A DNA stretch of 64,000 bases from an uncultured Rhodospirillaceae bacterium (GCA_964631725.1 CAZVYX010000016.1:36773-100772); one strand, 5' to 3'. Positions 20,691-56,033 are shown, numbered from the stretch's first letter. The notes: a model not told the origin generated them from the letters alone. Translations and numbers: made by a program.

Positions 20691-20705
20691 GACCCGCCGC
20701 CGCCG

Positions 20706-29117: not shown

Positions 29118-29303
29118 ATGGCGCAGACAGGAATTGCCAAATATACGGATACTTCGCAGGCTCGGACCGCGCAGGTCATGCAGGCTGGCCTGGCGGCCTT
29201 ATTGGGACTGGCGCTGTTCATCGGCGTGGCCTTGTCCCATCCCGCGGCTGTCCACAACGCGGCGCATGACTCCCGTCACGGCATTGCGGCGCCCTGTCAC
29301 TAA
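29118..29303 (+). CDS. cbtB: Cobalt transporter small subunit CbtB
   Basis: 61-aa protein with a single TM and a His-rich C-terminus (HNAAHDSRHG), immediately upstream of cbtA. Confidence 0.55.
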   Translation: MAQTGIAKYTDTSQARTAQVMQAGLAALLGLALFIGVALSHPAAVHNAAHDSRHGIAAPCH

Positions 29304-32515: not shown

Positions 32516-32648
32516 TTGATTTTGCCAGGGGCATTGCGGGCGGTATTCGAGTACGCGGGATCACATCCTAGTGCCTTTCCTGGCTTGCGCCAAAGCTCAA
32601 TCCATGCCTATTGCAGGGCACGGGCGCGATCAAGGGATTTTCGGCGGA

Positions 32649-37048: not shown

Positions 37049-37746
37049 AGGCCCACGCCCTCCTTGCGCACCAGAATCATGGCGAAATAGGGCACTTGGT
37101 CGGGATTGACGTCCGAAAGCTTTTGCACCTGCTGCTCGGGCATGGTGGCGTGAGCCACATAGTGCGCCTGATCCAGCAAATTCAATTCCCGCAGCACGCC
37201 GTAGACCTTCGGCGCATGACGGCCCAGTTTGATGATCGCCGCCGCGTCAGTCTGCAAAAGGCGGGCACACAAATCCTCCGCCGCCATGGGTGCCGGCAGG
37301 ATGCTCAGAACCTCGTTGCGCGCCACCAGGGGCGTCTGCGCGGCGCCGGCACAGGCCATCAGCGAGGATATGCCGGGCACCACCTGTACCGGGAAGTCAT
37401 CGGCCAGGCGATTGAAGAGATACATGAAGCTGCCATAAAAGAACGGATCGCCCTCGCATATCACGGCGACATCCTGTCCGCTGCGTAAGACGGCGGCGAT
37501 TTCCGCCGCGCCCTTGTCGTAGGCGGTGCGGTCGGGGAAACGGTTCGGATCCAGGGGCATGCGGATGATGATTTCCCGCCGGCCTTCCGGTATGTGCGGT
37601 GCGGCGATGCGGCGGGCCAGACTGTCGCCCACTTCAGGCGCCGGATAGGCAATAGCATCCACGGTCTGCAGGATTTTGTGCGCCTTCAGGGTGATCAGAT
37701 CGGGATCGCCGGGGCCAACGCCGAGGCCATAAAGGGTCGCCGTCAT
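37045..37746 (-). CDS. cobI: Precorrin-2/cobalt-precorrin-2 C20-methyltransferase
   Basis: MTATLYGLGVGPGDPDLITLKA methylase N-terminus. ATGA overlap with the cobL stop. Confidence 0.8.
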   Translation of the reverse strand: MTATLYGLGVGPGDPDLITLKAHKILQTVDAIAYPAPEVGDSLARRIAAPHIPEGRREIIIRMPLDPNRFPDRTAYDKGAAEIAAVLRSGQDVAVICEGDPFFYGSFMYLFNRLADDFPVQVVPGISSLMACAGAAQTPLVARNEVLSILPAPMAAEDLCARLLQTDAAAIIKLGRHAPKVYGVLRELNLLDQAHYVAHATMPEQQVQKLSDVNPDQVPYFAMILVRKEGVGL

Positions 37747-38957
37747 GATTTCACGCCCCGGTACTGCGTGACCGGGCGCATGGCGCGCCAGGCATGCAGA
37801 TCGCCCATGCCGTCCATATGGGAAACCGCGATCCGAGTCATCCCGCCGCCGTTGGTCCTCATAAACCTGAACAGTTCGCTCTCTCCTTCGACACTGACCG
37901 CATTGGCGACCAGGCGCCCGCCCTTGGGCAGAGCCCGCCAGCAGGCCTGCAGCAGCTTGCGGTTGCCGGCGCCGCCGCCGACGAAAATTACGTCCGGCTT
38001 GGCCAGACCCTTCAAGGCGGTGGGGGCGGCGCCTTCGACGATCGCCAGATTCTGTACGCCCAGGTTTTGACCATTGGCGCGGATAAATCCTGCTCGTATG
38101 GCATTCTGTTCTATGGCGATGGCCCGTGCGGTGGGTTCGGCGCGCAGGAATTCGATGGCGATGGAGCCGGCACCGGCGCCGACATCCCACAACACATCCC
38201 CCGGGGCGGGCGCCAGGGCGGCCAGGGTGACGGCGCGGACCTCTCGCTTGGTCAATTGACCGTCATGCTGGAACATCTCGTCGGGCAGGCCTGCCGGCCG
38301 CATCAGGCGGGGTGCGTCCGGGTCGGCAATACAATGCAGCGCGATGGTGTTCAAATCGCCGGCCTTGCGCCGCCAGGTCTTGGCCGTGCCGTCGTGGCGC
38401 TTCTCCCGCGGCCCACCCATGTTTTCGAATACGGTCATGGCACTGCCGCCATAGCCGGCTGCCCGCAAGGCGGCGGCGACCTCGCGGGGCGTATTGCCGT
38501 CTCCGCTCAAGATCAGGATCCGTGCGTTGGGCCGCAGGTGCCGGTTCAAAAGGCCCGCGGGGCGGCCATGCAGGGTCATGCCGTCGACCTGGGCCAAGGG
38601 CCAGCCAAGCCGGGCGCAGGCCAGGGAAAAGGCCGATTGGTGCGGGATCACCAGACAGTTTTCGGCGCCGTATTCCCGGCATAAGGTGATGCCGATGCCA
38701 TAAGACATGGGATCGCCGGTGGCCAGCACGCAGACCTGTTGGCCCTTGTATGCCGCCAGCTTGCCCACTGTTTCATGCAGCGCGCCATTCCATGTCAGAC
38801 GGGCGCGCTGGTCATCGCCCAGCATGGCCAGATGCCTCTCGCCGCCGACCAGGATTTCGGCCCCGTCGATGGCGGCGCGGGCGGCTTCGCCAAGTCCGGC
38901 CAGGCCATCTTCGCCAATGCCGATGATGGAAAGCCATTTTGTCATGCCGGCACTCAT
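37743..38957 (-). CDS. cobL: Precorrin-6Y C5,15-methyltransferase (decarboxylating), fused CbiE/CbiT
   Basis: N-terminal methylase domain (LSIIGIGEDG) plus a C-terminal SAM-MTase domain (VLWDVGAGAGSIAIE). Confidence 0.85.
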   Translation of the reverse strand: MSAGMTKWLSIIGIGEDGLAGLGEAARAAIDGAEILVGGERHLAMLGDDQRARLTWNGALHETVGKLAAYKGQQVCVLATGDPMSYGIGITLCREYGAENCLVIPHQSAFSLACARLGWPLAQVDGMTLHGRPAGLLNRHLRPNARILILSGDGNTPREVAAALRAAGYGGSAMTVFENMGGPREKRHDGTAKTWRRKAGDLNTIALHCIADPDAPRLMRPAGLPDEMFQHDGQLTKREVRAVTLAALAPAPGDVLWDVGAGAGSIAIEFLRAEPTARAIAIEQNAIRAGFIRANGQNLGVQNLAIVEGAAPTALKGLAKPDVIFVGGGAGNRKLLQACWRALPKGGRLVANAVSVEGESELFRFMRTNGGGMTRIAVSHMDGMGDLHAWRAMRPVTQYRGVKS

Positions 38958-39595
38958 ACGGGCGTCCGGGCCAGGGCGTTGACGGCGGCGGCGGCGATGG
39001 CGCTGCCGCCCCGGCGGCCGCGAAGGGTCAGATAGGGGATGTTCCCGGCATTGTCGATCAGGGCCTGTTTCGATTCCGCCGCGCCGACGAAGCCGACGGG
39101 AAAGCCCAGAATGACGGCGGGTTTCGGCGCGTCATCGGCCAGCATTTCCAGCAGGCGAAACAGCGCCGTTGGGGCATTGCCGATACAGATCACCGCGCCT
39201 TCCATGTCTTCGCGCCATTTCTCCACTGCAACGGCGGAGCGGGTTTCGCCGCGCGCCTTGGCGGTCTTTTCGACGCCAAAGGTATTCAGGGTGCAGACGA
39301 TCTGGTTCCCCGCCGGCAACAGCCGGTCGATGATGCCGTGGCGCACCATCATGACATCCACCAGGATCGCCGCGCCCCGGCGCAACGCCGCGCTTCCCGC
39401 CGCCACCGGATCACCGCCCCAGGCCAGATCGGCGGGCAGATCGGTCATGCCGCAGGCGTGGATCAGGCGCACGGCGACATCGTGCAGATCCTCCGGCAGG
39501 GCGGAGAAATCCGCTTCCGCCCTGACGATGGCGAAGGATCTGTCGTAGATCGCCTGGGGATCGCGCAGGTAATCGTATGGCGCCTGGGTGCCCAT
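38954..39595 (-). CDS. cobH: Precorrin-8X methylmutase
   Basis: CobH/CbiC family, ~210 aa. Confidence 0.85.
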   Translation of the reverse strand: MGTQAPYDYLRDPQAIYDRSFAIVRAEADFSALPEDLHDVAVRLIHACGMTDLPADLAWGGDPVAAGSAALRRGAAILVDVMMVRHGIIDRLLPAGNQIVCTLNTFGVEKTAKARGETRSAVAVEKWREDMEGAVICIGNAPTALFRLLEMLADDAPKPAVILGFPVGFVGAAESKQALIDNAGNIPYLTLRGRRGGSAIAAAAVNALARTPV

Positions 39596-39602: not shown

Positions 39603-40676
39603 CTATTTCTTCACCATGCTGCGCGGGCCCAGGGGATGATCGGCGTGGGGATAGGGGTGGTGGGCGTGATCGTGGCCGCCATCGTGATCATGGTCATGGT
39701 CATGGGAATGGCCGTGATCGTGATCGTGCGCGGGGTCATGGCCCTGATCGTGTCCATGATGGACATGCGCCGTGGGGTCGAAATCCTCGTCCGAGATCTT
39801 GCCCGTGCCGATGCCTTCCACGTGATGGTGGTGACTTTCCTGGGGCAGGCCGACTTCGACCTCGAAGCCCAGCACCTGTTCCCGGTATTTGCAATTCAGG
39901 CAGTTCATGTTGTTGGCGCCTTCCAAGGCCTCGTTGACCCGGTCGGCGAACGCATCCAGCACCAAGGGGTGGTCATTCAGGTACGAGGCCTTGACGAATT
40001 CGATCTCCGGATGATCGGCCGCGACCACATCGGCGTAATGATAGATGCGTCGGACCAGAATGCCGGTGAACAGAAAATACGGAAAAACGATGATCCGTTT
40101 GTAGCCCAGCTTGGCCGCATGCCGCAGGCCCGGCTCCACCAGGGGGAAGGTAACGCCGGAATAGGCGACCTCGGCCCAGCCGAAGCCCAGGCCTTCCCAC
40201 AACAGGCGGCAGACTTTCGAGATATTCGAGTTGGCGTCGGGATCGGAGGCGCCCCGGCCGACCACCACCAGCAGGGTTTCCTCCGGGCTGATGTGATCGC
40301 CGGCGGCATCCATGGCCTCACGCACCCGGTCGCCGGCGGCGCGGATCAGCTTCATGTCCATGCCCAGATCGCGGCCATAGGTGATGTCCAATTCCGGGTG
40401 CTGGGCGGCATAGGTGTTGATCACCGAGGGCAGGTCGTTCTTCACATGGCCGGCGGCGAACAGCATGCCCGGTATGGCGATGATGCGCTTGTTGCCCCGC
40501 TCCCGCAGGGCATCGAGCCGTTCGCGGATGATCGGCGTGGCGAACTCCAGAAAGCCGCTATCCACGTCATATTGCGGCAGGCGGGCGCGGATACCGTCCG
40601 CGACGCTTTGAAATTCTGTAACGGCGTCTTCGTCGCGGCTGCCATGGCCGCAGACCATAATGCCAATATTTGTCAT
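39603..40676 (-). CDS. cbiX: Sirohydrochlorin cobaltochelatase CbiX (long form) with a His-rich C-terminal tail
   Basis: Duplicated CbiX domain (IMVCGHGSRD..., LLVVVGRGASDPDAN). Tail: HHHHVEG...HVHHGHDQGHDPAHDHDHGHSHDHDHDHDGGHDHAHH. Confidence 0.8.
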   Translation of the reverse strand: MTNIGIMVCGHGSRDEDAVTEFQSVADGIRARLPQYDVDSGFLEFATPIIRERLDALRERGNKRIIAIPGMLFAAGHVKNDLPSVINTYAAQHPELDITYGRDLGMDMKLIRAAGDRVREAMDAAGDHISPEETLLVVVGRGASDPDANSNISKVCRLLWEGLGFGWAEVAYSGVTFPLVEPGLRHAAKLGYKRIIVFPYFLFTGILVRRIYHYADVVAADHPEIEFVKASYLNDHPLVLDAFADRVNEALEGANNMNCLNCKYREQVLGFEVEVGLPQESHHHHVEGIGTGKISDEDFDPTAHVHHGHDQGHDPAHDHDHGHSHDHDHDHDGGHDHAHHPYPHADHPLGPRSMVKK

Positions 40677-40768
40677 GATTGCCTCATCCACTCTCGATAC
40701 GCCACGCTTGCTCTCGTTAAGGTAATGCGGCAAACCTGCTGGCTTCGCGGCTTAGCATAGCAGTTTGC

Positions 40769-41722
40769 ATGTTTGAATTTGTTTTTCCCATACAGGCGGT
40801 ATTTCTCGCCCTGGCGCTGGATCTGCTGTTCGGCGAGCCCAAGTGGCTCTACGACCGGGTCGCACATCCCGTTGTCTGGATCGGAAAGCTGATTTCCGCC
40901 CTTGAGGGCCGCCTGTACGGCCCGCAAAACCAGATATTTCAGGGTGCGGTTCTGGTCGCCGTCACGGTCGTTCTGTGCGCGGCCGCCGGCGCTGTTATTT
41001 CGTGGTTGGCGGAACAAACCGGTCTCGACTGGATCCTGACCGGTATCGTCGGCTCGGTGTTTCTTGCGGCCCGCAGCCTGTATGACCATGTGGTCACGGT
41101 GGCGCGGGGTCTGTCCCGGGACCTGGAAGCGGGGCGCGCGGCGGTCAGCCATATCGTTGGCCGGGATGTTTCGGAATTGGACGAGGCCGGCGTCGCCCGC
41201 GCGGCCTTGGAAAGCCTGGCCGAGAATTTTTCCGACGGCGTGGTGGCACCGCTGTTCTGGTTCCTTGTCGCCGGTTTGCCGGGGCTGCTGGCCTACAAGG
41301 CGGTCAATACCCTGGACAGCATGCTCGGCCACCGTAACGAACGCTATCTGTATTTTGGCCGGGTGGCGGCGCGCCTGGACGATGTGGTGAACTGGCCGGC
41401 GGCGCGGATCACCGGTGCCTTGCTGTGTTTCGGCGCGCTGGTGGCGCCCGGCCTGGACGCGGGCAAGGCCTGGCGCACCATGTGGCGGGATGGGGGCAAG
41501 CACATATCGCCCAATGCCGGCTGGCCCGAGGCCGCCATGGCGGGCGCCCTGGGCATCGCCCTGGCCGGACCACGGATCTATGACGGCGCGCGCACCGATG
41601 ATCCTTGGCTCGGCGATGGCGACGGCATGGTGACGGCGGCGGACATTGCGCGGGGCTGCACCTTGTACCGCTGGACCTGCGCCGCGATCCTGCTGGCCCT
41701 GTTGGTGCTCGCCTTGCCCTAG
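40769..41722 (+). CDS. cobD: Adenosylcobinamide-phosphate synthase
   Basis: CobD/CbiB membrane protein family. Confidence 0.85.
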   Translation: MFEFVFPIQAVFLALALDLLFGEPKWLYDRVAHPVVWIGKLISALEGRLYGPQNQIFQGAVLVAVTVVLCAAAGAVISWLAEQTGLDWILTGIVGSVFLAARSLYDHVVTVARGLSRDLEAGRAAVSHIVGRDVSELDEAGVARAALESLAENFSDGVVAPLFWFLVAGLPGLLAYKAVNTLDSMLGHRNERYLYFGRVAARLDDVVNWPAARITGALLCFGALVAPGLDAGKAWRTMWRDGGKHISPNAGWPEAAMAGALGIALAGPRIYDGARTDDPWLGDGDGMVTAADIARGCTLYRWTCAAILLALLVLALP

Positions 41723-41735
41723 TTCAGGCAGCAGT

Positions 41736-43199
41736 TCAGGCCGCATGGGCGATCTCCAACATGCGGTCCAGATCCAGGTTTTCCTCCAGATGCGCGGCCA
41801 GGCCATCAAGGGTCTGGTCAACCAGGGCATCATGATTGACGCCGCTTTGTTGCCGCGCCCGCAGCTTTGACAGATAGGCATGGCGGAAAGCGTCGGCCCG
41901 CATCAGGCCGTGCAGATAGCAGCCCTCGACCCGGCCATCGGCGCTGCGCGCGCCGTCCGTTCCGCCATCGAGTTCAAGGAACGGCCGGGCCTGGTCCGGT
42001 CCGCTCGTGAGACCGAGGTGGATTTCATAACCGTGCAGGGCTTCGCCGCTTTCAATATGAATGCCGGCGCGTTTGCCCAAGCTCTTTTCCGGCGACAGCA
42101 CGGTTTCCATGTCCAATAGACCCAGGCCGTCCGCCCGCGAGATCGGGCCCTCAATGCCTTCGGGATCGGCGATGGTTTTGCCCAATATTTGATAGCCGCC
42201 GCAAATGCCCAGGATATACCCGCCGCGCCGGTGATGGGCCAGGATGTCAATGTCCCAGCCCTGGCGGCGGAGAAAGGCGAGATCGGCGATGGTGGCCTTG
42301 CTTCCGGGCAGCAGGATCAGGTCCGCATCGCCCGGGACTACCTCGCCCGCCGCAACGATCCGCACCTCCACATCCGGTTCGGCATTCAGGGGATCCAGAT
42401 CGTCGAAATTGGCGATGCGGGAAAGCTTCGGCACGGCTATTTTAATGGCGCCGTCACGGCGCGCGGCCGGCTTATCCAGGGCGACGGCGTCTTCCGCCGG
42501 CAGATGCACGGCATCTGGAAAATACGGCGCGATGCCCATGGCGGGCCAGCCGGTGCGGTTGGTGATTTCCGTCAGGCCATCGTCGAACAGGGTCACGTCG
42601 CCACGGAATTTGTTGATGATATAGCCCTTGATGCGCGTCCTGGCGTCGTCATCAATTACCGCATGGGTGCCGACAACGGCGGCGATGACGCCGCCCCGGT
42701 CGATATCCGCCACCAGGATTACCGGTACGTTTGCGGCGGCGGCAAAACCCATGTTGGCGATGTCCCGGCCCGGCAGATTGATCTCCGCCGGGCTGCCCGC
42801 CCCTTCGACCAGGACCAGATCGGCGCCGGATGAATTAATCTCGTAGCTCTCCAATACCTCGGCCATCAAGCCGGCTTTCAGGTGCTGATAGTCCCGCGCA
42901 TTGGCGGCGCCGCGAACCTGGCCGCGCACGATGATCTGTGCGCCGATGTCGGTCTGTGGTTTCAACAGCACTGGGTTCATATGCACACTGGGTTCGGCCC
43001 GGGCGGCGAGCGCCTGCAAATGCTGGGCCCGGCCGATCTCACCGCCGTTGCCGGCGATGGCGGCGTTATTGGACATGTTCTGCGGCTTGAAGGGCCGTAC
43101 CTCTAGGCCCCGGTTGGCATAGGCGCGCGCCAAGCCGGCCACCATGAGCGATTTGCCCACGTCGGATCCGGTGCCTTGGAACATCAGCGCCCTTGCCAT
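41736..43199 (-). CDS. cobQ: Cobyric acid synthase
   Basis: CobQ/CbiP: N-terminal GTGSDVGKS and a C-terminal GATase domain. Confidence 0.9.
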
Positions 43200-43209
43200 C
43201 GTCCGCGGC

Positions 43210-43830
43210 CTAAAACTCGATGCCCTTCTGGGCCTTAACGCCGGAGCGGAAAGGGTGCTTTACCTGGGTCATTTCGGTGACCAGATCGGCGATTTCGATC
43301 AATTCGTCCTTGGCGTTGCGCCCCGTAACGATGACGTGCAGGTCTTCCGGTTTGTTCGACAGGGTCTCGATGATTTCATCCAGGGGCAGGTTGTCGTAGC
43401 GCAGGACGATGTTGAGTTCGTCCAGCAGAATCATGTCGAATTCCGGGTTCGGCCCACGCGACGCTTCGATCATCTCCTTGGATTTATCCCAGGCCTTGCG
43501 CGCGGCGGCGATATCGCGGGCCTTGTCCTGGGTTTCCCAGCTAAAACCTTCGCCCATGGCATGGATTTCGATCTGGTCGGGGAAATGTTCCAGGATATCC
43601 CGCTCCCCGGTTTCCCATTTGCCTTTCACGAACTGGATCACACCGACCCGCATGCCGTTGCCCATGGCGCGCACGACCAGGCCAAATGCGGCGGTTGATT
43701 TACCCTTGCCCTTGCCGGTGTGCACGATCACCAAGCCTTTTTCGATGGTCTTGGTGGCCAGCATTTTTTCCCGGGCGCGCTTTTTGTTAGCGGCCTTTTC
43801 GTTGGCGCGGGCGTATTGGTCGTCACTCAT
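43210..43830 (-). CDS. cobO: Cob(I)yrinic acid a,c-diamide adenosyltransferase
   Basis: CobO/BtuR family ([15 protein letters not shown]). Confidence 0.9.
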
Positions 43831-46800
43831 CCTTGTTCTCCCATGCTCATGCTTTCATTGGCCGCGATCAGATCGCGCAGGGCGTCCGGGGTGGAGTTGG
43901 AAAGGGTCTGCCACAGGCCGCGCTCCAGCGCCTCGGTCAGCCGCTCCGCCATTTCCTTCAGTGCCGCCGGATTGTTTTGACGCAAAAAGTCCAGAACTTC
44001 GTCGTCATTCAGGTACGCTTCGTAGACTGCGTCGAAATGATGGTCCGAGACGACCCGCGCCGTGGCGGCAAAGGCGAACAGGTAATCCACCGTCGCCGCC
44101 ATCTCGAAGGCGCCCTTGTAGCCGTGGCGCATGACGCCGGAAATCCACTTCGGATTGACCACGCGGGCCCGCACGACGCGGCCGATCTCGTCTTCCAGGC
44201 TGCGGATCTTCGGTGCGAAGGGCCGGCTGTGATCATTGTGATAGATGGCGGGCTGGGCGCCTGAATAGTGCCGCACGGCTGCCGTCAAGCCGCCTTCGAA
44301 CTGGTAGTAGTCGTCTGAATCCAGCAGGTCGTGCTCTCGATTGTCCTGGTTTTGTACCACGCCCTGGGTGCTGGACAGGAGGGACTGGAACTGGCCGTGT
44401 GCCGGCCGGCCGGACTTCTTGCCGCCATAGGCATAGCCGCCCCAGGCCAGATAGGCGCGGGCCAGATCGCCGTCGTCCCGCCAGCCACGCTCGTCCATCA
44501 GGGCCTGCAAACCAGCGCCGTAGGCGCCGGGTTTGGAACCGAATACGCGGGCGGCGGCCAGATGGTCCGCGTCTGATGCGTCATGGCCCGCCTGGCGTAA
44601 ACGATGGGCATCGGCACGGGCCCGCGCCGCCAGGGGGTTGTCCCGCTCGGCCTCGTCCAGGGCGGCGACCTCCCGGGCGGCACTGTCGAACAGATCGATC
44701 TGGGTCGGAAAGGCATCGCGGAAAAAGCCGGAAATACGCAAGGTCACATCGACCCGGGGCCGGTCCAGCATATGGATGGGCAGGATGTCGAAGCCGATGA
44801 CCCGGCGCGATGCGGGCTCCCACTTCGGCTGTACGCCCATCAGCGCCAGGGCCTGGGCGATATCATCGCCGCCGGTGCGCATGTTGGCGGTGCCCCAGGC
44901 GCTGATCGCCAGATGTTTCGGCCATTCGCCATGGCTTTGCCGGTATTCATCCAGCAACAGGTTGGCGGATTTCCAGCCCAACTGCCAGGCGGCCGGAGTG
45001 GGTACGGTGCGGCTGTCCACGGAATAGAAATTCCGCCCCGTGGGCAGAACGTCCAGGCGCCCCCGCGTCGGCGCGCCGGACGGTCCCGGTTCGACGAATT
45101 TGCCATCCAGACCCTGGATCAGGGCGGAGATTTCGGCCTCACCGCAGGCATCCACGGTGGGGCCTACATGCCCGGCAATATTGTCCAGCACGGCCCGGGT
45201 CGCCGTCCAGTCCGGCGCTATCGTTGCCGTGCCATCGACCAGGCCGGCGGCCAGTTCCTCCAACCGTTCCACGGTGTCGCCATGGCTGCGCCAGGCTGCG
45301 TCACCCATTCGCAACGGCGCCGGCTTTGGTCCGTGCCAAGTATCTCCCAGGGTGCAATCCAGCGGATCGAAGGCAAGTTCAAGATCCTCGGCCAGGGCTC
45401 GGATCAGGGAGGCATCGCCCGGATTGTCAGCTTCATCGCCCTGGCGCGGCAGACGGGTCAGGGCCACCAACAGATCCCGGCGCAAGCGGCCCTCCAATGG
45501 CTGGCCCAGAACATGCAGGCCGTCGCGGATCTGCATTTCCTTCAGGTCGCACAGGTAATTGTCCAGTTTGGCCAGGGCGGCGGCCTCGTCATCCCCGGCG
45601 TCGATGCCTGCGTCCTTGTCCAGGCCGATATCGCGCGTCAGTTCCAAAATCTGCCCGCGCAAAAGATTAAGGCGGCGCGGATCCAGGCCGGCGGCTTCAT
45701 AGAATTCATCCACCAGCAGTTCCAGCTCCGCCAGGGGGCCGTAGCTTTCCGCCCGCGTTAATGGCGGCGTCAAATGATCGACGATTACCGCCTGGGCCCG
45801 CCGCTTGGCCTGCGTGCCTTCGCCGGGATCATTGACGATGAAGGGATAAAGATGGGGCAGGGGACCCAAGGCGGCTTCCGGATAGCAATTTTCGGAGAGC
45901 GCCAGGGACTTACCCGGCAGCCATTCCAGATTGCCGTGCTTGCCCATATGGATCATGGCCTGGACGCCAAAGCTCCGGCGCAGCCAGGCGTAAAAGGCCA
46001 GATATCCGTGCGGCGGCACCAGGTCCGGGTCGTGGTAGGTCGACTTGGGGTCGATGTTGTAGCCCCGTGCTGGTTGCAGGCCGATCACCACCTTGCCCTG
46101 GATGAAGGCGGGCAAGATGAAGGCATCGCCATCCACGAAGGGATCGTCCCCGGCCGGCCCCCAGCGCTCATTGACTTGTGTCTGTATTGTCTCGGGCAGA
46201 TTGTTGAAGAAATCTTGATAGTCGGCGACGGCGAACTTGATGCCCCCCGCGCGGCCGGCCCGGTTCGTCAGATTGTTGGTCGGTCCGGCGGCGAGTTTTC
46301 TGATCAGATCATCGCCCCGGCCCGGCAGGCTGCCCACGTCATAATCCGCATCCGCCAAGGCGCGCAGCAGGTTCAAGGCGGAGGCAGGCGAGTCCAGACC
46401 GACGCCGTTGCCCATGCGGCCATCCTTGTTGGGGTAGTTGGCGAAAATTAGTGCCAGGCGCCGCTTGGGCGCGGGCGTCTGCGTCAGCGCCAACCAATTG
46501 GCGGCCAGGCGGCAGACAAAATCGATCCGGTCCGGCACCCCTTGGTAGGCGATCACCGGCAACTGCGTGGCTTCGTCAAAACGCGCCTCGGCCTTGAACG
46601 ATACGGCGCGGGAGATGATCCGGCCGTCGACTTCGGGCAAGGCCACGTTCATGGCGATGTCACGGGCGCTCAAGCCGTTCAAATTTTCGCGCCAGTCCTC
46701 TTCGTTGCCGCCGGCGAAGATCATCTGAATAACCGGCACGCCGGGCCGTTCCAGGGGTGAATCCGCCCGCGCGCCGCTGGGTTTGGAAATGGCGAAGCCG

Positions 46801-47591
46801 GTGGCGTTGAGGATCACGCCGGGCGGTTCCTCGGCAAAGATCGCATTCACGGTTTCCGCCGAGACCGCTTCCTTCAGGGAGGCGACAAAGACCGGCAGCG
46901 GGTTCAGGCCGTGATCGCGCAAGGACCGGATCACGCCGTCCACCGGGTCCAGATTGCCCGCCTGATACAGGGCCCGATAGAAGGTGACGGCGGCCACTGC
47001 CGCGCCCGGCGTCCAATGCCGCCGCAGCTCCGCCAGGGTTACGGCGCCCTGGCCGGGCCAATAGATGCCGGCGCGCAGCAACGGCGCGGGCTCCCGCCAA
47101 TCAACCGGTTGGCCCAATAGGCTGGCGGCATAGGCCAGTAGATTGCCGCCGTTTTCCAGGCCGCCATGGACGAAATACTGCCACAGACGGTGGCAAGCCT
47201 CGGCCGGCAGGGTCGATAGGCCATGCAGTTCGGCATCGGGCTGATCATCGCCCGGGATGATGGCCAGGGCGATATCTGACTGGCGGCAGCAGTCCACCAC
47301 CTGTTCCACGCCATAGGGCCAGTAGTTGACGCCGCCCAGCAACCGGATGACCACCAGTTTAGCCGCCCTGACAATGTCGCCGACGTATAGATCGACCGAC
47401 ATGTTGTGGCTTAGGTTCATCAGGTTCGCCAGGCGCAGGCTGGGCGCATCCGAATTCCGCCCCGCCGCCGACAGCATCTGCAAGTCCGTATCCGCCGCCG
47501 ACAGGATAACGATGTCGCCGGGGCTTTGGCCCAGGTCCACCGCCTCCGCTCCATCGGAGATGCCGCCGGGTTTGGCTGCGAGCAGATGCAT
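43827..47591 (-). CDS. cobN: Cobaltochelatase large subunit CobN
   Basis: ~1250 aa CobN/Mg-chelatase H family protein embedded in the cob operon. Confidence 0.85.
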   Translation of the reverse strand: MHLLAAKPGGISDGAEAVDLGQSPGDIVILSAADTDLQMLSAAGRNSDAPSLRLANLMNLSHNMSVDLYVGDIVRAAKLVVIRLLGGVNYWPYGVEQVVDCCRQSDIALAIIPGDDQPDAELHGLSTLPAEACHRLWQYFVHGGLENGGNLLAYAASLLGQPVDWREPAPLLRAGIYWPGQGAVTLAELRRHWTPGAAVAAVTFYRALYQAGNLDPVDGVIRSLRDHGLNPLPVFVASLKEAVSAETVNAIFAEEPPGVILNATGFAISKPSGARADSPLERPGVPVIQMIFAGGNEEDWRENLNGLSARDIAMNVALPEVDGRIISRAVSFKAEARFDEATQLPVIAYQGVPDRIDFVCRLAANWLALTQTPAPKRRLALIFANYPNKDGRMGNGVGLDSPASALNLLRALADADYDVGSLPGRGDDLIRKLAAGPTNNLTNRAGRAGGIKFAVADYQDFFNNLPETIQTQVNERWGPAGDDPFVDGDAFILPAFIQGKVVIGLQPARGYNIDPKSTYHDPDLVPPHGYLAFYAWLRRSFGVQAMIHMGKHGNLEWLPGKSLALSENCYPEAALGPLPHLYPFIVNDPGEGTQAKRRAQAVIVDHLTPPLTRAESYGPLAELELLVDEFYEAAGLDPRRLNLLRGQILELTRDIGLDKDAGIDAGDDEAAALAKLDNYLCDLKEMQIRDGLHVLGQPLEGRLRRDLLVALTRLPRQGDEADNPGDASLIRALAEDLELAFDPLDCTLGDTWHGPKPAPLRMGDAAWRSHGDTVERLEELAAGLVDGTATIAPDWTATRAVLDNIAGHVGPTVDACGEAEISALIQGLDGKFVEPGPSGAPTRGRLDVLPTGRNFYSVDSRTVPTPAAWQLGWKSANLLLDEYRQSHGEWPKHLAISAWGTANMRTGGDDIAQALALMGVQPKWEPASRRVIGFDILPIHMLDRPRVDVTLRISGFFRDAFPTQIDLFDSAAREVAALDEAERDNPLAARARADAHRLRQAGHDASDADHLAAARVFGSKPGAYGAGLQALMDERGWRDDGDLARAYLAWGGYAYGGKKSGRPAHGQFQSLLSSTQGVVQNQDNREHDLLDSDDYYQFEGGLTAAVRHYSGAQPAIYHNDHSRPFAPKIRSLEDEIGRVVRARVVNPKWISGVMRHGYKGAFEMAATVDYLFAFAATARVVSDHHFDAVYEAYLNDDEVLDFLRQNNPAALKEMAERLTEALERGLWQTLSNSTPDALRDLIAANESMSMGEQG

Positions 47592-47598: not shown

Positions 47599-48642
47599 TC
47601 AGTCCAGGATCATCGCGCGGATGGCGGCTTCGTCCAGGCCATGCAGGCCGATCACCACCAGGCGGCTGGCGCGGTCTTCGTCCGTGCCCCAATCCCGGTC
47701 ATAATAGTGCTGATAACGGTCGCCGACACCCTGTACCAGCAGGCGCATATCCTTGCCCTTGACGGCGATGAAGCCTTTCATGCGCAGCACGTCATGGGCC
47801 GCCGCTGCCTGCCGCAGTTTCGCCACCAGGGCTTCGGGATCGGCCACCGCATCGAAGGCCACGACGAAGCTTTCAAAGTCATCGTGTTCGTGGTCGTCTT
47901 CGTCATCGTGATGGGAGGGACGGTTGTCTAAATCGTCCTCGGCGGCGGCGTCCAGGCCCAGCAAGGTATCGGCATCAATGGCGCCGTGGCGGGCCGGCAC
48001 CACCCGTATCGATTGCCGTAGGGCGGCCCGCAAATCCGCCGTGACGCGGGGTGCTTCCTCTTCCGATATCAGGTCGGCCTTGTTCATCACCACCATATCG
48101 GCGCAGGCCAGTTGATCCGTGAACAGTTCCGCCAGCGGGCTGTCATGATCCAGCGCCTCGTCGGCCTGCCGTTGCGCCATGACCGCGTCCGGGTCATCGG
48201 CGAACAGGCCGGCGGCGAATGCCGGTGCATCGACTACGGTAACCACGCCATCGACGGTGATGCGGGTGCGGATGCCTGGCCAGTTGAAGGCCTTCAGCAG
48301 CGGTTTCGGCAAGGCCAGGCCGGACGTCTCGATAATGATGTGGTCAATGCCCCCGGGCCGGTCCAGCAACGCCTCCATGGTGGGCACGAAATCGTCGGCC
48401 ACGGTGCAACAAATGCAGCCATTGGCCAGTTCGACAATGTCTTCTTCGGCACAATTCTCGGCACCGCAGGCCTTTAGGATATTGCCGTCGACGCCGACGT
48501 CGCCGAATTCGTTGATAATCAGCGCCAGGCGCCTGCCGTTGGCGGTTTGCAAAAGGTGCCGGATCATGGAGGTTTTGCCCGCGCCCAGGAAGCCGGTGAT
48601 GACGGTGGCGGGAATACGTTGCAGATTGCTCATGAACGGCAT
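47599..48642 (-). CDS. cobW: Cobalamin biosynthesis GTPase CobW (COG0523)
   Basis: GFLGAGKT P-loop, CICC motif (GCICCTV), His/Asp-rich stretch HHDDEDDHEHDD. Confidence 0.85.
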   Translation of the reverse strand: MPFMSNLQRIPATVITGFLGAGKTSMIRHLLQTANGRRLALIINEFGDVGVDGNILKACGAENCAEEDIVELANGCICCTVADDFVPTMEALLDRPGGIDHIIIETSGLALPKPLLKAFNWPGIRTRITVDGVVTVVDAPAFAAGLFADDPDAVMAQRQADEALDHDSPLAELFTDQLACADMVVMNKADLISEEEAPRVTADLRAALRQSIRVVPARHGAIDADTLLGLDAAAEDDLDNRPSHHDDEDDHEHDDFESFVVAFDAVADPEALVAKLRQAAAAHDVLRMKGFIAVKGKDMRLLVQGVGDRYQHYYDRDWGTDEDRASRLVVIGLHGLDEAAIRAMILD

Positions 48643-48764
48643 GATCCTAGCTGGTGATAAAGGCGGGAATGTCCGGAATGATTCATGACCTTGCGTCCTC
48701 CCTCCGAGGATCTGTTACTTGGTTTCAACAGGCCGCGCGCGTCTTCTGGCTTAGGATCATCGGT

Positions 48765-48930
48765 TGCGGGACCTTCCCGGCGGCAGCACCGCCAGTGGCA
48801 TTTTCCCGTTTCCTCACCATTCACAGTTGCGGGGGCAGCGCCGGATTTTACGTCCCGAACTGACAGGGACGAAACACCGGCTTCCGCGCCACGGCTGGCG
48901 CAAACTAGCACGCATGACAGGCCCCGGCAA
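48765..48930 (-). ncRNA. Cobalamin (AdoCbl) riboswitch in the 5' leader of the cobW-cobN-cobO-cobQ operon
   Basis: The minus-strand sequence reads ...GCGCGGAAGCCGGTGTTTCGTCCCTGTCAGTTCGGGACGTAAAATCCGGCGCTGCCCCCGCAACTGTGAATGGTGAGGAAACGGGAAAATGCCACTGGCGGTGCTGCCGCCGGGAAGG... It contains the GAAGCCGGTG, AAAATCC, CCCCGCAACTGT, B12-box GCCACTG and GGGAAGG consensus elements in the canonical order. Confidence 0.75.
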
Positions 48931-49014
48931 TCGGCTAGCCGAATTGCCGCTGGCAATGTCTGTCGTGCCAGCGTAAAGCTAGGGGCAACATTGTTAAGCG
49001 TTTTGGATTTCCGA

Positions 49015-49731
49015 ATGTCTACAATTCTCGCCATGGGGTTCCTGTTGGGACTGCAGCACGCCATGGAGGCCGATCACGTTGCCGCCGTCGCGGCCCTGGC
49101 CGCCGGCAAGGGCCGGTTGCGCTGGGTGCTGCGCCACGGCCTGTTCTGGGGTCTGGGCCATGCCCTGGCGCTGGGCGCCTTTGCCGGCGCGGTCTTGTTG
49201 GCGCGGGGCAGCATACCGGAAGGGCTTGGCGCCGGCCTGGAGTTTGCCGTCGCGTGCATGCTGATCGCCCTGGGCACAATGGTGATTTGGCGGGTGGTGC
49301 GGGAACGCCTGCATTTTCATGTCCATCGCCATGCCGATGGCAAGATGCATTTCCACGCCCATAGCCATGCCGGCGAACGCCAGACCCACGATAGCAACCG
49401 CCACGAACATGGACACGGCGGCAGCGGTGTCCGGCGCAGCCTGGCCGTCGGTGTGATGCATGGCCTGGCGGGCTCCGCCGCGCTGATCGCCTTGGCGGGC
49501 CCGACACAGATGTTGGAAGGCATGGGTTTCGTCTTTCTGTTCGGTGCTGGATCCATTGCCGGCATGGTGTTGCTGTCTTCGGTCATTGCCCTGCCGTTAC
49601 TGTTGTCGGGCCGCGTGATGACGGGGCTGAACCGGGGTTTGCAGGCTGGTATCGGCGTTGTTTCAATCGCCATCGGCGGTTTCCACGCCCATGCCGGGGC
49701 GCCAGCGATGTTGGCCCTGCTGCAAGCGTGA
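49015..49731 (+). CDS. NicO-family nickel/cobalt transporter (RcnA-like) with a His-rich loop
   Basis: LQHAMEADHVAAV signature (HxxxxDH) in TM2. Central His-rich loop HFHVHRHADGKMHFHAHSHAGERQTHDSNRHEHGHGG. Six predicted TMs. Confidence 0.7.
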   Translation: MSTILAMGFLLGLQHAMEADHVAAVAALAAGKGRLRWVLRHGLFWGLGHALALGAFAGAVLLARGSIPEGLGAGLEFAVACMLIALGTMVIWRVVRERLHFHVHRHADGKMHFHAHSHAGERQTHDSNRHEHGHGGSGVRRSLAVGVMHGLAGSAALIALAGPTQMLEGMGFVFLFGAGSIAGMVLLSSVIALPLLLSGRVMTGLNRGLQAGIGVVSIAIGGFHAHAGAPAMLALLQA

Positions 49732-50714
49732 CACAGGTGCTGCCACGGCACGGCGGCGAGCCGCCGATCGGCGCGGCGGAGGACGGGTCGGAATGGCTGG
49801 ACCTGTCCACCGGCATCGCGCCGTTCGCCTATCCCTTTGCCCCGCCGCCGGAGCGCGTATGGCGCAATCTGCCCCGCCGGCGGCAGGAACAGGCCGCCCT
49901 ATGGGCGGCGGCGCGTTACTTCGGGCTGACGGGGATGGACGAAATCTGCCTTGGTCCCGGCTCCCAGGCGCTGTTGCAACTGTTGCCGGAGATTCTGCCC
50001 GCTGCTCCCGTCGCGGTCCTGGCGCCAACCTATAATGAGCATGCGCACCGTTGGTCCCACGCCGGCCATGGCGTGGAAGAGATATCGGCCATCGCGGATC
50101 TGCCCCAAACCTGCCGCTATGTCGTGGTGGTCAATCCGAACAATCCCAACGGTGCGGTCCAGGGGCGGCAAGAGTTGTCGCGGCTGGCGGACGAGATGGC
50201 GGCGCGGCAGGGATATCTGATCGTTGACGAAGCATTTTGCGATCTTCGGCCCGACGTCAGCATGGCGTCGGAGGCCGGGCGGCCAGGTCTGTTGGTTCTG
50301 CGCTCGTTCGGTAAGTTTTTCGGCTTGGCGGGCTTGCGTCTGGGCTTTCTGCTGGGACCGGCGCCATTGATTGCCACGGCGCGGGCACGCTTGGGGCCCT
50401 GGCCGGTCAACGGCCCTGCCTTGGATATCGCGGCCCAGGCCTATGGTGATGCGGCCTGGATCGCGGCGCACCGGACGGTCCTGGCCGGGCAGGCCGAGAA
50501 ACTGCGGCGGTTGTTGTCGGAGCATGGCGACATCCTTGGCGGTACGGATCTGTTTGTCCTGCTGCAATCGGATCGAAGCGCGGAGATCAATGCCCGTCTG
50601 GCCGAGGCCCGAATACACGTGCGCGATTTCGCGGAGCAAAAGACCTGGCTGCGTTTTGGCCTGCCCGGCGGTGATGCCGCCTGGGAACGTCTGCAACGGG
50701 CGCTCGGCGCCTGA
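49728..50714 (+). CDS. cobC: L-threonine-O-3-phosphate decarboxylase (class I/II aminotransferase fold), CobC/CobD
   Basis: PLP-enzyme fold with VVVVNPNNPNG...YLIVDEAF and a Lys in SFGKFFGLAGLRLG. GTG start overlapping the upstream stop. Confidence 0.7.
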   Translation: MTQVLPRHGGEPPIGAAEDGSEWLDLSTGIAPFAYPFAPPPERVWRNLPRRRQEQAALWAAARYFGLTGMDEICLGPGSQALLQLLPEILPAAPVAVLAPTYNEHAHRWSHAGHGVEEISAIADLPQTCRYVVVVNPNNPNGAVQGRQELSRLADEMAARQGYLIVDEAFCDLRPDVSMASEAGRPGLLVLRSFGKFFGLAGLRLGFLLGPAPLIATARARLGPWPVNGPALDIAAQAYGDAAWIAAHRTVLAGQAEKLRRLLSEHGDILGGTDLFVLLQSDRSAEINARLAEARIHVRDFAEQKTWLRFGLPGGDAAWERLQRALGA

Positions 50715-56004: not shown

Positions 56005-56033
56005 TTCCGCCGTCCTTTGCTAATCTATGTGCG

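Follow-up and report, generated by a model that had tools for sequence, protein, structure and literature searches.

The presence of an early cobaltochelatase (CbiX or CbiK) together with CobN, the large subunit of the late one, was reported earlier in Ralstonia, in haloarchaea (PMC8305020), in Chloroflexus (PMC3150298) and in cyanobacteria (PMC9227772). Ralstonia solanacearum, a cultured aerobe, carries cbiX, cobN, a COG0523 GTPase gene, cbiG and cbiD in one megaplasmid cluster without cobG. The haloarchaeal pHV3-type set (Haloferax volcanii cbiX1, cobN and chlID) associates a cobalt-early gene set with a seemingly needless late large subunit, which was called an 'open issue' and for which salvage was suggested (PMC8305020). 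In Chloroflexus aurantiacus, cbiK (Caur_2572) and cobN (Caur_2579) lie in one operon and dual aerobic/anaerobic use was proposed (PMC3150298), as it was for the CbiX and CobN gene sets of cyanobacteria, whose cob genes are scattered and whose CobN is assumed to be partnered by ChlI/ChlD (PMC9227772).

Each half of the combination is also described on its own. As far as the work of Leech et al. 2003 is related in PMC7689651, the long-form CbiX-L of Bacillus megaterium has two domains, an N-terminal His pair, an MXCXXC motif and a His-rich tail, and its gene is the first of a corrin-ring operon. Among alphaproteobacteria, the cobalt-late clusters of Azospirillum lipoferum p4, Rhizobium phaseoli, Sinorhizobium meliloti and Brucella melitensis have cobW-cobN(-cobO) at their head. 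Paracoccus pantotrophus/denitrificans possesses cobN and a class II chelatase annotated 'CbiX', but the latter is the sirohaem ferrochelatase SirB, and its gene is linked to nir/sirohaem genes, not to cob genes (PMC4063343).

Here we analysed a 64-kb stretch of DNA (hereafter the window) that contains a B12 cluster and comes from an uncultured, Rhodospirillales-like marine alphaproteobacterium. We confirmed that early (CbiX) and late (CobN/CobW) cobalt-inserting systems are both encoded in this one cluster, which is a further case of a combination already known from other microbes. The window shares with B. megaterium the features and operon position of CbiX-L listed above, and two Bacillales orthologs (L011, L012) likewise head cbiX-cbiJ-cbiC-cbiD-... 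operons; however, these orthologs are only 36-38 % identical to the window CbiX, which has an extra conserved C-terminal motif (PYPHADHPLGPRS), and, unlike in B. megaterium, the window cbiX shares its cluster with cobW-cobN and alphaproteobacterial enzymes of aerobic lineage. With the alphaproteobacterial cobalt-late clusters it shares the cobW-cobN(-cobO) head, as well as CobH, CobM and CbiD 60-64 % identical to those of Azospirillum, but it has no cobF and its CobI and CobJ are more divergent (38-47 % identity). Ralstonia has a CbiX::CobH fusion (CbiX 49 % identical) and a chlD-type subunit gene after cobN, and the low identity of its ring enzymes to those of the window (29-50 %) assigns it to a different lineage. 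The Haloferax system is archaeal, with an adjacent chlID partner and a CobN 34 % identical, and Chloroflexus has CbiK in place of CbiX-L. CbiX of marine Synechococcus and Cyanobium is 54-62 % identical to the window CbiX.

Gene content and order of the cobalamin locus

The cob cluster is near-complete and spans 29.1-50.7 kb of the window (Table 1). All the elements named in a previous sequence-only reading of this DNA were recovered by family scans and ORF translations where it had placed them or close by: a long-form CbiX and a full-length CobN co-encoded at one locus, the anaerobic-type genes (cbiD, a cbiG::cobJ/cbiH fusion and a His-tailed long cbiX) and cobW. Both chelatase genes are intact, as it had stated, with full domains and conserved motifs.

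Table 1. Features of the cobalamin locus, in window coordinates, with the supporting family matches
Feature	Position	Strand	Evidence
cbtB, 61-aa ORF	29118..29303	+	one hydrophobic stretch, His/Cys C-terminus, just upstream of cbtA
cbtA, predicted cobalt transporter	29356..30123	+	Pfam CbtA 168 bits
cobT/cobU, nicotinate-nucleotide:DMB phosphoribosyltransferase, 337-aa call	30156..31169	-	TIGR03160 371.7 bits
cobB/cbiA, a,c-diamide synthase	31187..32515	-	NF002204 468 bits
cbiD, C1 methyltransferase	32571..33743	+	NF000849 456 bits, TIGR00312 394 bits
cobK/cbiJ, (cobalt-)precorrin-6A reductase	33736..34482	+	NF005968 262.9 bits (cutoff 231)
cobM/cbiF, C11 methyltransferase	34479..35237	-	TIGR01465 328.7 bits
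cbiG::cobJ/cbiH, C17 methyltransferase/ring-contraction enzyme	35240..37048	-	CbiG_N 47-125, CbiG_C 205-326, TP_methylase 344-552 (Pfam); TIGR01466 276.9 bits
cobI/cbiL, C20 methyltransferase, 233-aa gene call	37045..37746	-	TIGR01467 217.5 bits
cobL (cbiE+cbiT fusion)	37743..38957	-	TIGR02467 157.6 bits, TIGR02469 118.8 bits
cobH/cbiC, (cobalt-)precorrin-8 methylmutase	38954..39595	-	NF006136 299.5 bits (cutoff 276)
cbiX long form (CbiX-L type class II sirohydrochlorin cobaltochelatase)	39603..40676	-	Pfam CbiX (PF01903) x2, E 2.8e-50
cbiB/cobD, adenosylcobinamide-phosphate synthase	40769..41722	+	TIGR00380 213 bits
cobQ, cobyric acid synthase	41736..43199	-	NF001989 615 bits
cobO, corrinoid adenosyltransferase	43210..43830	-	NF004637 277 bits; Pfam CobA_CobO_BtuR
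cobN, large subunit, class I (ATP-dependent, late) cobaltochelatase, 1254 aa	43827..47591	-	TIGR02257 1637.7 bits (cutoff 822)
cobW, COG0523 GTPase cobalt chaperone	47599..48642	-	TIGR02475 538.8 bits (cutoff 332); Pfam cobW, CobW_C
Cobalamin (AdoCbl) riboswitch, leads cobW-cobN-cobO-cobQ	48719..48932	-	Rfam RF00174 85.4 bits, gathering score 31.5, full model 1-189
NicO-family Ni/Co permease	49015..49731	+	homologs with PF03824, named Ni/Co permease or RcnA in their sources
cobD, threonine-phosphate decarboxylase	49728..50714	+	TIGR01140 310 bits

The cobW-cobN late chelation module sits under the riboswitch, which heads cobW-cobN-cobO-cobQ only; no second cobalamin riboswitch was detected between 28.5 and 50 kb with RF00174, even at E ≤ 1. 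The cobW-cobN gap is 7 bp, and the end of cobN and the start of cobO share 4 bp. The NicO permease and cobD pair is divergent from the riboswitch, and cbiB/cobD, on the opposite strand, stands between the cobW-cobQ and cbiX units. The cobT/cobU gene is distinct from the chelatase subunit gene cobT, cbtB was named by position and comparison with the annotated cbtB-cbtA pair of Azospirillum, and the true start of cbiD is probably 11-26 codons downstream of the listed one (gene calls of 364-379 aa).

The earlier statement that cobS/cobT chelatase genes, cobG and cobF are missing nearby holds for the whole window: Pfam/NCBIfam scans of large ORFs gave no cobG, cobF, cobZ, cobS/cobT or chlI/chlD in the 64 kb, and CobG (Azospirillum, Rhizobium), CobF (Rhizobium) and ChlD (Ralstonia) queries gave no tblastn match there, CobS, CobT and CobZ being covered by the family scans only. 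Neither a NIR_SIR nor a CobZ-like domain was found in the window ORFs scanned, nor a precorrin-2 dehydrogenase gene (sirC/cysG) in the 64 kb. CobG and CobF were also undetectable by tblastn in every cbiX-type locus compared. In S. meliloti, likewise, neither cobS nor cobT lies within 20 kb of cobW-cobN-cobO, and their absence from the window is therefore normal and means little. The window and related clusters thus contain the cobalt-early set (CbiX, full-length CbiG and CbiD, without CobG/CobZ and CobF); of the cobalt-late markers, the CobW-CobN module is present and CobG/CobZ was not found within the sequences searched.

Gene order was compared with that of aerobic-type clusters, i.e. cobW-cobN-cobG-cobH-cobI-cobJ...cobE-cobM in Azospirillum lipoferum and cobF-cobG-cobH-cobI-cobJ in Rhizobium. 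In the window, as in at least 10 related loci from alphaproteobacteria, the order is cbiX-cobH-cobL-cobI-cbiG::cobJ-cobM. By position, cbiX takes the slot just upstream (5') of cobH that is normally that of cobG, the gene of the O2-dependent precorrin-3B synthase, and a full CbiG::CobJ replaces the short CobE; in the comparison with Azospirillum and Rhizobium, cbiX is present where cobG has been lost and a full-length cbiG gained. The cluster can be described as an alphaproteobacterial cob cluster of the 'aerobic' kind altered in two linked respects. The same order was found in no fewer than 10 independent alphaproteobacterial contigs/genomes at 50-85 % protein identity, so that the arrangement is not due to chance. 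Association of cbiX with cobH is widespread in cobalt-early clusters, the two being fused in Ralstonia and Deinococcus and adjacent in Acidovorax and SAR324.

The seven ring enzymes tested group with alphaproteobacterial aerobic clusters (100 % bootstrap) as opposed to Firmicute, betaproteobacterial and Deinococcus types. In quick neighbor-joining trees, in which the cobG type was represented by two sequences only, CobJ and CobM of cbiX-type clusters split from the cobG type with bootstrap values of 75 % and 85 %, respectively, and CobI is 38-40 % identical to the cobG type versus 49-57 % within the cbiX type. No such separation was obtained for CobH, CobL, CbiD and CobK; together with CobB, these are 46-64 % identical to the cobG-type Azospirillum cluster and nested among cobG-type sequences. 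The best PDB matches of CobH were 3e7d and 1f2v (230 bits), which we take to be the Brucella and P. denitrificans CobH, aerobic enzymes acting on cobalt-free precorrin-8X, versus about 100 bits for chains that we assume to be anaerobic-type CbiC.

CbiX, CobN and CobW

The window CbiX has the sequence features of CbiX-L as defined in PMC7689651 (reference His pair, B. megaterium His14/His79), i.e. tandem CbiX domains, an N-terminal His pair, MXCXXC and a His-rich tail. The pair consists of His11 (GHGS) and His77 (AAGHVKND), the equivalent positions of the C-terminal domain (GRGAS, PYFLFTG) being devoid of His, and this N-terminal-only arrangement holds in 12 of 12 aligned relatives. MXCXXC reads MNCLNC (residues 257-262), and the tail (residues 276-357) contains 23 His and 13 Asp in 82 residues, with HHHH at 282-285. 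In the alignment, the motif PYPHADHPLGPRS is common to alphaproteobacterial and cyanobacterial CbiX. Residues 5-253 align to two-domain chains deposited as sirohydrochlorin ferrochelatase, the best solved relatives being 6jv6 and 5zt7 (about 100-107 bits), presumably B. subtilis SirB. With a dN/dS of 0.067 against the ortholog of a related locus (L001), CbiX is under strong purifying selection, and an identical protein was found in at least 30 metagenome blocks. The possibility raised beforehand that cbiX might be a sirB paralog is unlikely, given these B. megaterium CbiX-long hallmarks and no match to any alphaproteobacterial (Paracoccus-type) CbiX structure at E ≤ 0.01. The Paracoccus ferrochelatase has its essential His127/His187 in the C-terminal half (PMC4063343; PMC7689651), whereas the window His pair is N-terminal and the neighbours of its gene are cob genes.

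CobN scored 1274 bits against NF008973 (cutoff 1235) and only 623 bits against the BchH model TIGR02025, below its cutoff of 829. Its best structural match was PDB 9uk9 (1596.6 bits over residues 1-1241), which we take to be Brucella CobN; among structures, Brucella melitensis CobN thus reached about 1596 bits versus 378 for ChlH and 342 for HmuS. The Brucella melitensis CobS-CobT-CobN complex is a solved structure. The proposed Brucella active-site residues H554/E593/D1100 are kept as H552/E591/D1093, within the conserved blocks HMGKHGNLEW, NDPGEGTQAK and DLLDSDDYYQFEGG, respectively, and CobN is 59 % identical to that of S. meliloti versus about 41 % to the ChlD-partnered one of Ralstonia. 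Judged from these comparisons, CobN is a close ortholog of the CobST-dependent Brucella/Sinorhizobium enzyme and not a BchH, contrary to one outcome that the sequence-only reading had envisaged. CobW displays GFLGAGKTS (Walker A), GCICCT (CxCC) and a His/Asp stretch, and scored 154 bits against the ZigA model, far under the cutoff of 600. Relative to the same L001 locus, dN/dS was 0.134 for cobN and 0.080 for cobW, and both proteins look functional by every sequence test used.

Possible roles of the two chelatases

From gene identities, motifs, synteny, selection and lineage, which the analysis established directly, we infer what the enzymes act on, which way cobalt flows and what CobN does. 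With a probability of about 0.5, cobalt is inserted early, ring contraction is O2-independent and CobW-CobN is retained as a second, energy-driven late chelatase. CbiX would put Co(II) into sirohydrochlorin, and cobalt-bound intermediates would be converted by CobI/CbiL, CbiG::CobJ(CbiH), CobM, CbiD, CobK, CobL and CobH into cobyrinic acid, CobB, CobO and CobQ completing the common late steps. CobW-CobN, expressed under AdoCbl feedback along with cobO and cobQ, would act as a GTP/ATP-driven chelatase partnered by CobS/CobT encoded elsewhere, as in Sinorhizobium. Most likely, it would metalate cobalt-free corrinoids (e.g. hydrogenobyrinic acid a,c-diamide) that might originate from salvage, leakage or an O2-dependent branch outside the window.

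Several observations count for early insertion: (i) the CbiX-L hallmarks and low dN/dS of CbiX; (ii) the position of cbiX in the cobG slot in at least 10 loci, with CobG/CobF undetectable in the loci compared; (iii) the nature of the swapped functions, since CbiX and CbiG concern exactly the steps in which the two routes differ chemically, i.e. ring-contraction priming and lactone opening/deacylation (PMC7242693); (iv) the separation of CobJ and CobM in trees and the CobI identities; and (v) the adjacency or fusion of cbiX and cobH in cobalt-early clusters. The functional appearance of CobN and CobW argues for a retained second chelatase. On the other hand, type-specific hints in ring enzymes are limited to CobJ, CobM and CobI, and the nesting of downstream enzymes among those of cobG-type Azospirillum counts against early insertion, as does the resemblance of CobH to aerobic CobH; with early insertion, these enzymes would have to accept cobalt-bound substrates. 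The lack of sirC/cysG in the window weighs in the same direction, and, with 64 kb of the genome visible, cobG/cobZ could lie outside it. Moreover, the riboswitch control of CobW-CobN and its conservation, equal to that of the core enzymes, are more in keeping with a main than with an accessory role.

Two complete routes sharing ring enzymes, with cobalt inserted at two stages depending on O2 or cobalt availability as the sequence-only reading had proposed, and with an unlinked cobG/cobZ and CobW-CobNST for the O2-dependent late route and CbiX and CbiG for the O2-independent early one, are conceivable but unlikely. In their favour, the genes of both chelatase systems are intact and evolve under selection, the downstream enzymes are inseparable from aerobic-type ones, as expected of metal-agnostic enzymes, and CobB-type amidases are reported to take both cobyrinate and hydrogenobyrinate (PMC8123684). 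Thermodynamics indicate that CbiK-type chelatases obtain cobalt unaided and that CobNST needs CobW and GTP, which suggests complementary cobalt regimes (PMC10206600), and the same idea was proposed for Chloroflexus (PMC3150298), cyanobacteria and others (PMC9227772). Such two-stage insertion nevertheless requires cobalt-free ring contraction, and cobG, cobZ and cobF are absent from the window and from related, otherwise nearly complete clusters, whereas cobG-type alphaproteobacteria keep cobG inside the cluster beside cobH; precorrin-3B and cobalt-factor III would also both have to be substrates for contraction by a single CobJ/CbiH. It is distinctly doubtful that one assembly line with two cobalt entry points operates instead, the same ring enzymes processing cobalt-bound and cobalt-free intermediates, with CbiX acting early when cobalt is available and CobW-CobNST late when it is scarce, as this requires a CobG/CobZ-independent cobalt-free ring contraction or an unrecognised oxygenase. 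An ordinary aerobic pathway with cobG/cobZ elsewhere and late insertion only, the CbiX-like protein being a SirB-like ferrochelatase or a cobalt store/buffer, is improbable. In vitro, class II chelatases discriminate poorly between metals (PMC7689651), and it is the genomic context only, cbiX being the first gene of the corrin-ring operon, that speaks for Co(II) rather than Fe(II); the Paracoccus precedent, the ferrochelatase deposits 6jv6 and 5zt7, a cbiX operon without riboswitch and the aerobic lineage of CobH, CobN and CobW would agree with late insertion only. Against this reading stand the non-Paracoccus His pair, the presence of MXCXXC and of a His-rich tail as in the cobalt enzyme, the fusion of cbiX to cobH in Ralstonia and Deinococcus, and the link of cbiX to cobG loss and cbiG gain.

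The suggestion that CobN is a relic or a moonlighting protein, with BchI/BchD-type partners, another metal or an HmuS-like dechelatase activity, is already disfavoured and very improbable. Other roles do exist among CobN homologs (HmuS haem dechelatase, PDB 9d26), and CobN is of unclear function in cobalt-early haloarchaea (PMC8305020). A relic is hard to reconcile with the dN/dS values, the conserved proposed triad and a gene lying 7 bp after a bona fide cobW, overlapping cobO, behind the only B12 riboswitch and in the cobW-cobN-cobO order of S. meliloti; the Brucella score, far above those of ChlH and HmuS, and the higher identity to S. meliloti than to Ralstonia CobN speak against BchI/BchD-like partners or an HmuS-like role. 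Just as improbable is a single delivery chain, in which CobW, perhaps with CobN, might hand cobalt to CbiX with the His-rich tail as putative acceptor. In Ralstonia and Deinococcus, the cbiX::cobH operon has a COG0523 GTPase gene as its last gene, Deinococcus cobN lies on a different plasmid from that operon, and the C-terminal motif is conserved between alphaproteobacterial and cyanobacterial CbiX, but these GTPases are 31-33 % identical to the window CobW, cobW is coupled here to cobN and not to cbiX, and deletion of the C-terminal extension of B. megaterium CbiX-L leaves cobalt insertion unaffected (PMC7689651).

Under early insertion with a retained CobW-CobN, the cobG-to-cbiX swap would lift a B12 requirement such as that of Paracoccus (cobG-type route), which needs exogenous B12 in anaerobic growth (PMC4063343). 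The cluster type is also found in the cultured Kiloniella (K. majae) and Pelagibius (P. litoralis), which makes the combination of CbiX and CobN open to experimental test.

Organization of the B12 locus

The B12 locus is dense, occupying 29.1-50.7 kb of the window (G+C about 64%), and was mapped using Pfam, NCBIfam, Rfam and the gene calls on identical metagenome contigs. All the elements listed by a sequence-only reading of this DNA (cbiX, cobN, cobW, cbiG::cobJ and cbiD) were recovered by family scans, and its observation that an early (CbiX) and a late (CobN) cobaltochelatase are encoded in one locus is therefore confirmed.

Features of the window and of related loci, from low to high coordinates
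Feature	Position	Strand	Remarks
Two large ORFs (left end)	252-6194		708 aa without family match; 1271 aa with LVIVD repeats only
Type II secretion / type IV pilus-like set	7781-21758		Includes 14396-16075 and 16082-17302, without family match
P-type ATPase	22028-24475		Likely copper exporter; carries YHS and HMBD metal-binding domains
cbtB (probable)	29118-29303	+	61 aa; directly upstream of cbtA
cbtA		+
cobT-cobB		-	cobT: DMB phosphoribosyltransferase, not chelatase subunit
cbiD-cobK		+
cobM, cbiG::cobJ, cobI, cobL, cobH, cbiX		-	Transcribed from the cbiX side; genes separated or overlapping by 2-7 bp
C-terminal CbiX motif (H)PYPHADHPLGPRS	39606-39650		Also in L001-L009
cbiB		+	Between cbiX unit and cobQ
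cobQ, cobO, cobN, cobW		-	Transcription from cobW, behind riboswitch
Cobalamin riboswitch	48719-48932	-	Rfam, 85 bits; precedes cobW
NicO-family Ni/Co permease	49015-49731	+	238 aa; divergent from riboswitch/cobW; overlaps cobD start by 4 bp
cobD		+
L002 (related MAG), YfbK-like protein	2679-4919		746 aa
L018 (Ralstonia), CbiX::CobH/CbiC fusion	19965-21569		About 535 aa, in frame
L019 (Deinococcus taeanensis), same fusion	14953-16569		About 535 aa, in frame
L022/L023 (Kiloniella majae), Flavin_Reduct (PF01613)	7401-8035		Between cobO and cbiB; no equivalent in window

Family scans of the large ORFs detected none of cobG, cobF, cobZ, the chelatase subunit genes cobS/cobT or chlI/chlD in the 64 kb, and tblastn with real CobG, CobF and ChlD proteins gave no match there; for CobS, CobT and CobZ, the absence is that of family scans only. 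The gaps of four related loci (L002, L003, L004 and L010) were also considered as places for chlI/chlD, cobS/cobT or cobG and held unrelated genes only (a YfbK-like vWA protein, an MCP, transporters and an FGGY kinase). In L002, a 4.3-kb insert separates cobN from cobO, and the von Willebrand A protein that it encodes is not a ChlD-type chelatase subunit.

A single riboswitch-controlled operon uniting cbiX and cobN was rejected, since the opposite-strand cbiB separates the two units and no second cobalamin riboswitch was found in the cob region using Rfam, even at E ≤ 1. As cobO and cobQ belong to the riboswitch-led unit, the riboswitch cannot distinguish the two routes. The conserved ORF between riboswitch and cobD, which encodes a membrane protein, was considered as a missing B12 enzyme (BluE-like threonine kinase or CobG substitute) and discarded, its homologs being NicO-family proteins (PF03824) named Ni/Co permease or RcnA at their source; the longer ORF had no match in Pfam or NCBIfam. 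By homology, it is likely a second cobalt transporter here, in addition to cbtAB. The ORF called cbtB, on account of its position and of the annotated Azospirillum cbtB-cbtA pair, has one hydrophobic segment and a C-terminus rich in His and Cys (…HDSRHGIAAPCH); Rfam placed no riboswitch before it.

The early and late chelatases

CbiX (357 aa counted from the Met start) comprises two CbiX domains, with its catalytic histidines (His11 and His77) confined to the N-terminal one, an MNCLNC sequence (i.e. an MXCXXC motif) at residues 257-262 and an 82-residue tail containing 23 His and 13 Asp. An N-terminal His pair, MXCXXC and a His-rich tail are the defining features of CbiX-L, the cobalt enzyme of Bacillus megaterium (PMC7689651). 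In contrast, the Paracoccus-type alphaproteobacterial 'CbiX' carries its essential His pair in the C-terminal half and functions as a sirohaem ferrochelatase (PMC4063343).

The C-terminal motif of CbiX is kept in alphaproteobacterial and cyanobacterial orthologs and absent from Bacillales CbiX-L orthologs; QESHHHHVEG, right after MXCXXC, is conserved to the same degree. Additionally, a CbiX subgroup carries a four-cysteine insertion, C-[TA]-L-C-x3-C-T-G-x-C, about 300 residues in, after the HHHH block and before the His-rich tail (L005, L006 and L009 from Synechococcus/Cyanobium, the SAR116-like L007 and L008 from Limimaricola). This insertion, which groups two alphaproteobacteria with picocyanobacteria, could signal a second Fe-S site as well as horizontal transfer.

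CobN scored above the CobN equivalog thresholds and below that of BchH, and matched PDB 9uk9 (presumably Brucella melitensis CobN from the CobS-CobT-CobN holoenzyme) over its full length with 1596 bits, versus 378 bits for ChlH, so that a placement in the BchH clade is not supported. The structure of the B. melitensis holoenzyme has been solved (bioRxiv 10.64898/2026.07.21.739949). H554, E593 and D1100, which are proposed to form the active site, are conserved in the window CobN as H552, E591 and D1093. CobW qualifies as a genuine CobW equivalog and has both Walker A and CxCC motifs. Compared with orthologs in L001, a deep-sea alphaproteobacterial MAG, dN/dS was 0.067 for cbiX, 0.134 for cobN and 0.080 for cobW, in the range of other cob genes, with synonymous sites near saturation (dS about 0.9-1.2); neither chelatase is decaying.

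Regarding partners, the window CobN is 59% identical to that of Sinorhizobium meliloti and about 41% to the ChlD-partnered CobN of Ralstonia. Its sequence places it in the CobST-dependent clade of S. meliloti CobN, from which we infer that cobS/cobT lie elsewhere in the genome. In S. meliloti, too, cobS/cobT are missing from within 20 kb of the same cobU-cobW-cobN-cobO string, so that their lack near the window cobN carries no meaning.

Comparison with aerobic-type clusters

The comparison with Azospirillum and Rhizobium is the most informative result. The gene order is cbtB-cbtA-cobW-cobN-cobG-cobH-cobI-cobJ-(cobK)-cobL-cobE-cobM-(cbiD)-cobA-cobB-bluB on Azospirillum lipoferum plasmid p4 and cobF-cobG-cobH-cobI-cobJ-(cobK)-cobL-cobM in Rhizobium phaseoli. 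Relative to both, window-type cbiX takes the exact position of cobG, immediately 5' of cobH, and, relative to Azospirillum, the 147-aa CobE, which matches the CbiG C-terminal domain only, gives way to a CobJ fusion with full-length CbiG, N and C domains included. The cluster is orthologous to the well-studied alphaproteobacterial aerobic one, differing essentially by the replacement of cobG by cbiX and of cobE by cbiG::cobJ, with cobW-cobN kept under B12 control. The two exchanges match the two points at which the chemistry of the routes diverges, i.e. oxygen-dependent versus cobalt-assisted priming of ring contraction, and lactone opening with loss of the extruded carbon (PMC7242693).

CobH, CobL, CobM, CobK, CbiD and CobB of the window are 46-64% identical to those of Azospirillum, about as much as to cbiX-type alphaproteobacteria (cbiX upstream of cobH) at comparable distance, but only 27-50% identical to their counterparts from Ralstonia, Deinococcus, Acidovorax or Bacillales. 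CobI identity is 38-40% to cobG-type sequences versus 49-57% among cbiX-type ones. The best solved relatives of CobH, 3e7d and 1f2v (230 bits), are presumably the aerobic CobH of Brucella and P. denitrificans, and chains presumed to be anaerobic-type CbiC reach about 100 bits. On sequence, the remaining enzymes are not Salmonella- or Bacillus-like.

In neighbor-joining trees (500 bootstraps), each of the seven genes separated both alphaproteobacterial types and SAR324 from the Ralstonia/Deinococcus/Acidovorax/Bacillales outgroups with 100% support. Support for a cbiX-type clade excluding cobG-type sequences was 75% for the CobJ domain and 85% for CobM, but only 25% for CobI, 13% for CobH, 12% for CobL, 8% for CbiD and 0% for CobK. 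As these are distance trees with only two cobG-type sequences, it is suggestive rather than proven that the types differ solely in steps at or near cobalt insertion and ring contraction.

Interpretation, precedents and distribution

In the best-supported reading (probability about 0.5), CbiX would insert cobalt early, ring contraction would be O2-independent, and CobW-CobN, with unlinked CobS/CobT, would be retained as a working late chelatase. The latter may metalate cobalt-free corrinoids from salvage or leakage or, alternatively, work in an O2-dependent branch that is hidden from view. What chiefly speaks against this reading is the resemblance of the downstream enzymes to those handling cobalt-free substrates, and of CobW-CobN to core rather than accessory equipment. 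Two complete routes, with cobG/cobZ elsewhere in the genome, seem unlikely to us.

Late insertion only, CbiX being a ferrochelatase or a metal store, would agree with its closest solved structures (about 100-107 bits), which were deposited as sirohydrochlorin ferrochelatase and are presumably Bacillus subtilis SirB; to our knowledge, there is no CbiX-L structure to compare with. The CbiX-L features, together with the lack of any match to Paracoccus-type structures at E ≤ 0.01 in a search of solved structures, count against cbiX as a SirB paralog, and make this explanation quite doubtful. A relic or moonlighting CobN, as proposed in the sequence-only reading, is at odds with its dN/dS and conserved active-site residues and seems highly improbable, as does a CobW that feeds CbiX. 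Regarding early insertion by CbiX, Paracoccus, with a cobG-type route, requires exogenous B12 for anaerobic growth (PMC4063343); lifting this dependence is a possible physiological rationale for the cobG-to-cbiX swap.

The co-occurrence of CbiX/CbiK with CobN is not new in itself. In Chloroflexus aurantiacus, a single operon contains cbiK and cobN, for which dual use was proposed (PMC3150298); haloarchaea combine a cobalt-early set with cobN-chlID, a pairing that has been named an open issue and for which salvage was suggested (PMC8305020); and cyanobacteria are described as carrying both chelatase types (PMC9227772). The Ralstonia solanacearum megaplasmid shows the same combination, with a CbiX::CobH fusion beside cobN-chlD and a COG0523 GTPase, and in Deinococcus taeanensis the two systems lie on separate plasmids, cobN being on a different one from the CbiX::CobH operon. 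Both fusions are annotated merely 'precorrin-8X methylmutase', and their operons end in a COG0523 GTPase 31-33% identical to the window CobW.

To these precedents the locus adds one from alphaproteobacteria, with cultured carriers, where the swap can be followed one gene at a time alongside the classical aerobic cluster. At least 30 blocks of marine metagenome assemblies encode a CbiX identical to that of the window, JGI 3300007509 being one sample with the identical cluster, and the order cobW-cobN-cobO-cobQ-(cbiB)-cbiX-cobH-cobL-cobI-cbiG::cobJ-cobM, or close variants, recurs in many alphaproteobacterial MAGs. The cobW-to-cobM string is also found in cultured Kiloniella majae (GCA_002118285.1) and Pelagibius litoralis (GCA_011683915.1), being entirely co-directional in Pelagibius; the 5.3-Mb ENA contig ERZ25074506 is a further carrier. 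Denitrobaculum (D. tricleocarpae, GCA_007004665.1) and SAR324 have the cbiX-to-cobM module but no cobN within 10 kb. CbiX of marine Synechococcus/Cyanobium is 54-62% identical to that of the window. Sample names place one relative at 150 m in the Black Sea and another at 3000 m depth, which gives context to the rationale above but does not count as evidence for it.

That cobalt-early organisms keep a late chelatase despite its cost is an acknowledged puzzle (haloarchaea, Chloroflexus, cyanobacteria, Ralstonia), on which this locus offers a clean natural experiment: as the swap is essentially limited to cbiX/cbiG::cobJ and cultured carriers exist, the role of CobN is experimentally resolvable, as is the metal specificity of the late ring enzymes. 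Ocean B12 supply rests on few producer lineages, and marine cobalt is very scarce. The locus also cautions against 'aerobic' or 'anaerobic' pathway calls from metagenome marker genes, as Shelton et al. reportedly did earlier.

Elsewhere in the window, the secretion/pilus-like set comprises a prepilin peptidase, GspE-/GspF-like proteins, pseudopilins, GspK, a secretin, GspM/PilN-like proteins and several ORFs without family match. G+C is 0.56-0.60 at 24001-28000 and 56001-60000, versus about 0.65 in the rest of the window.
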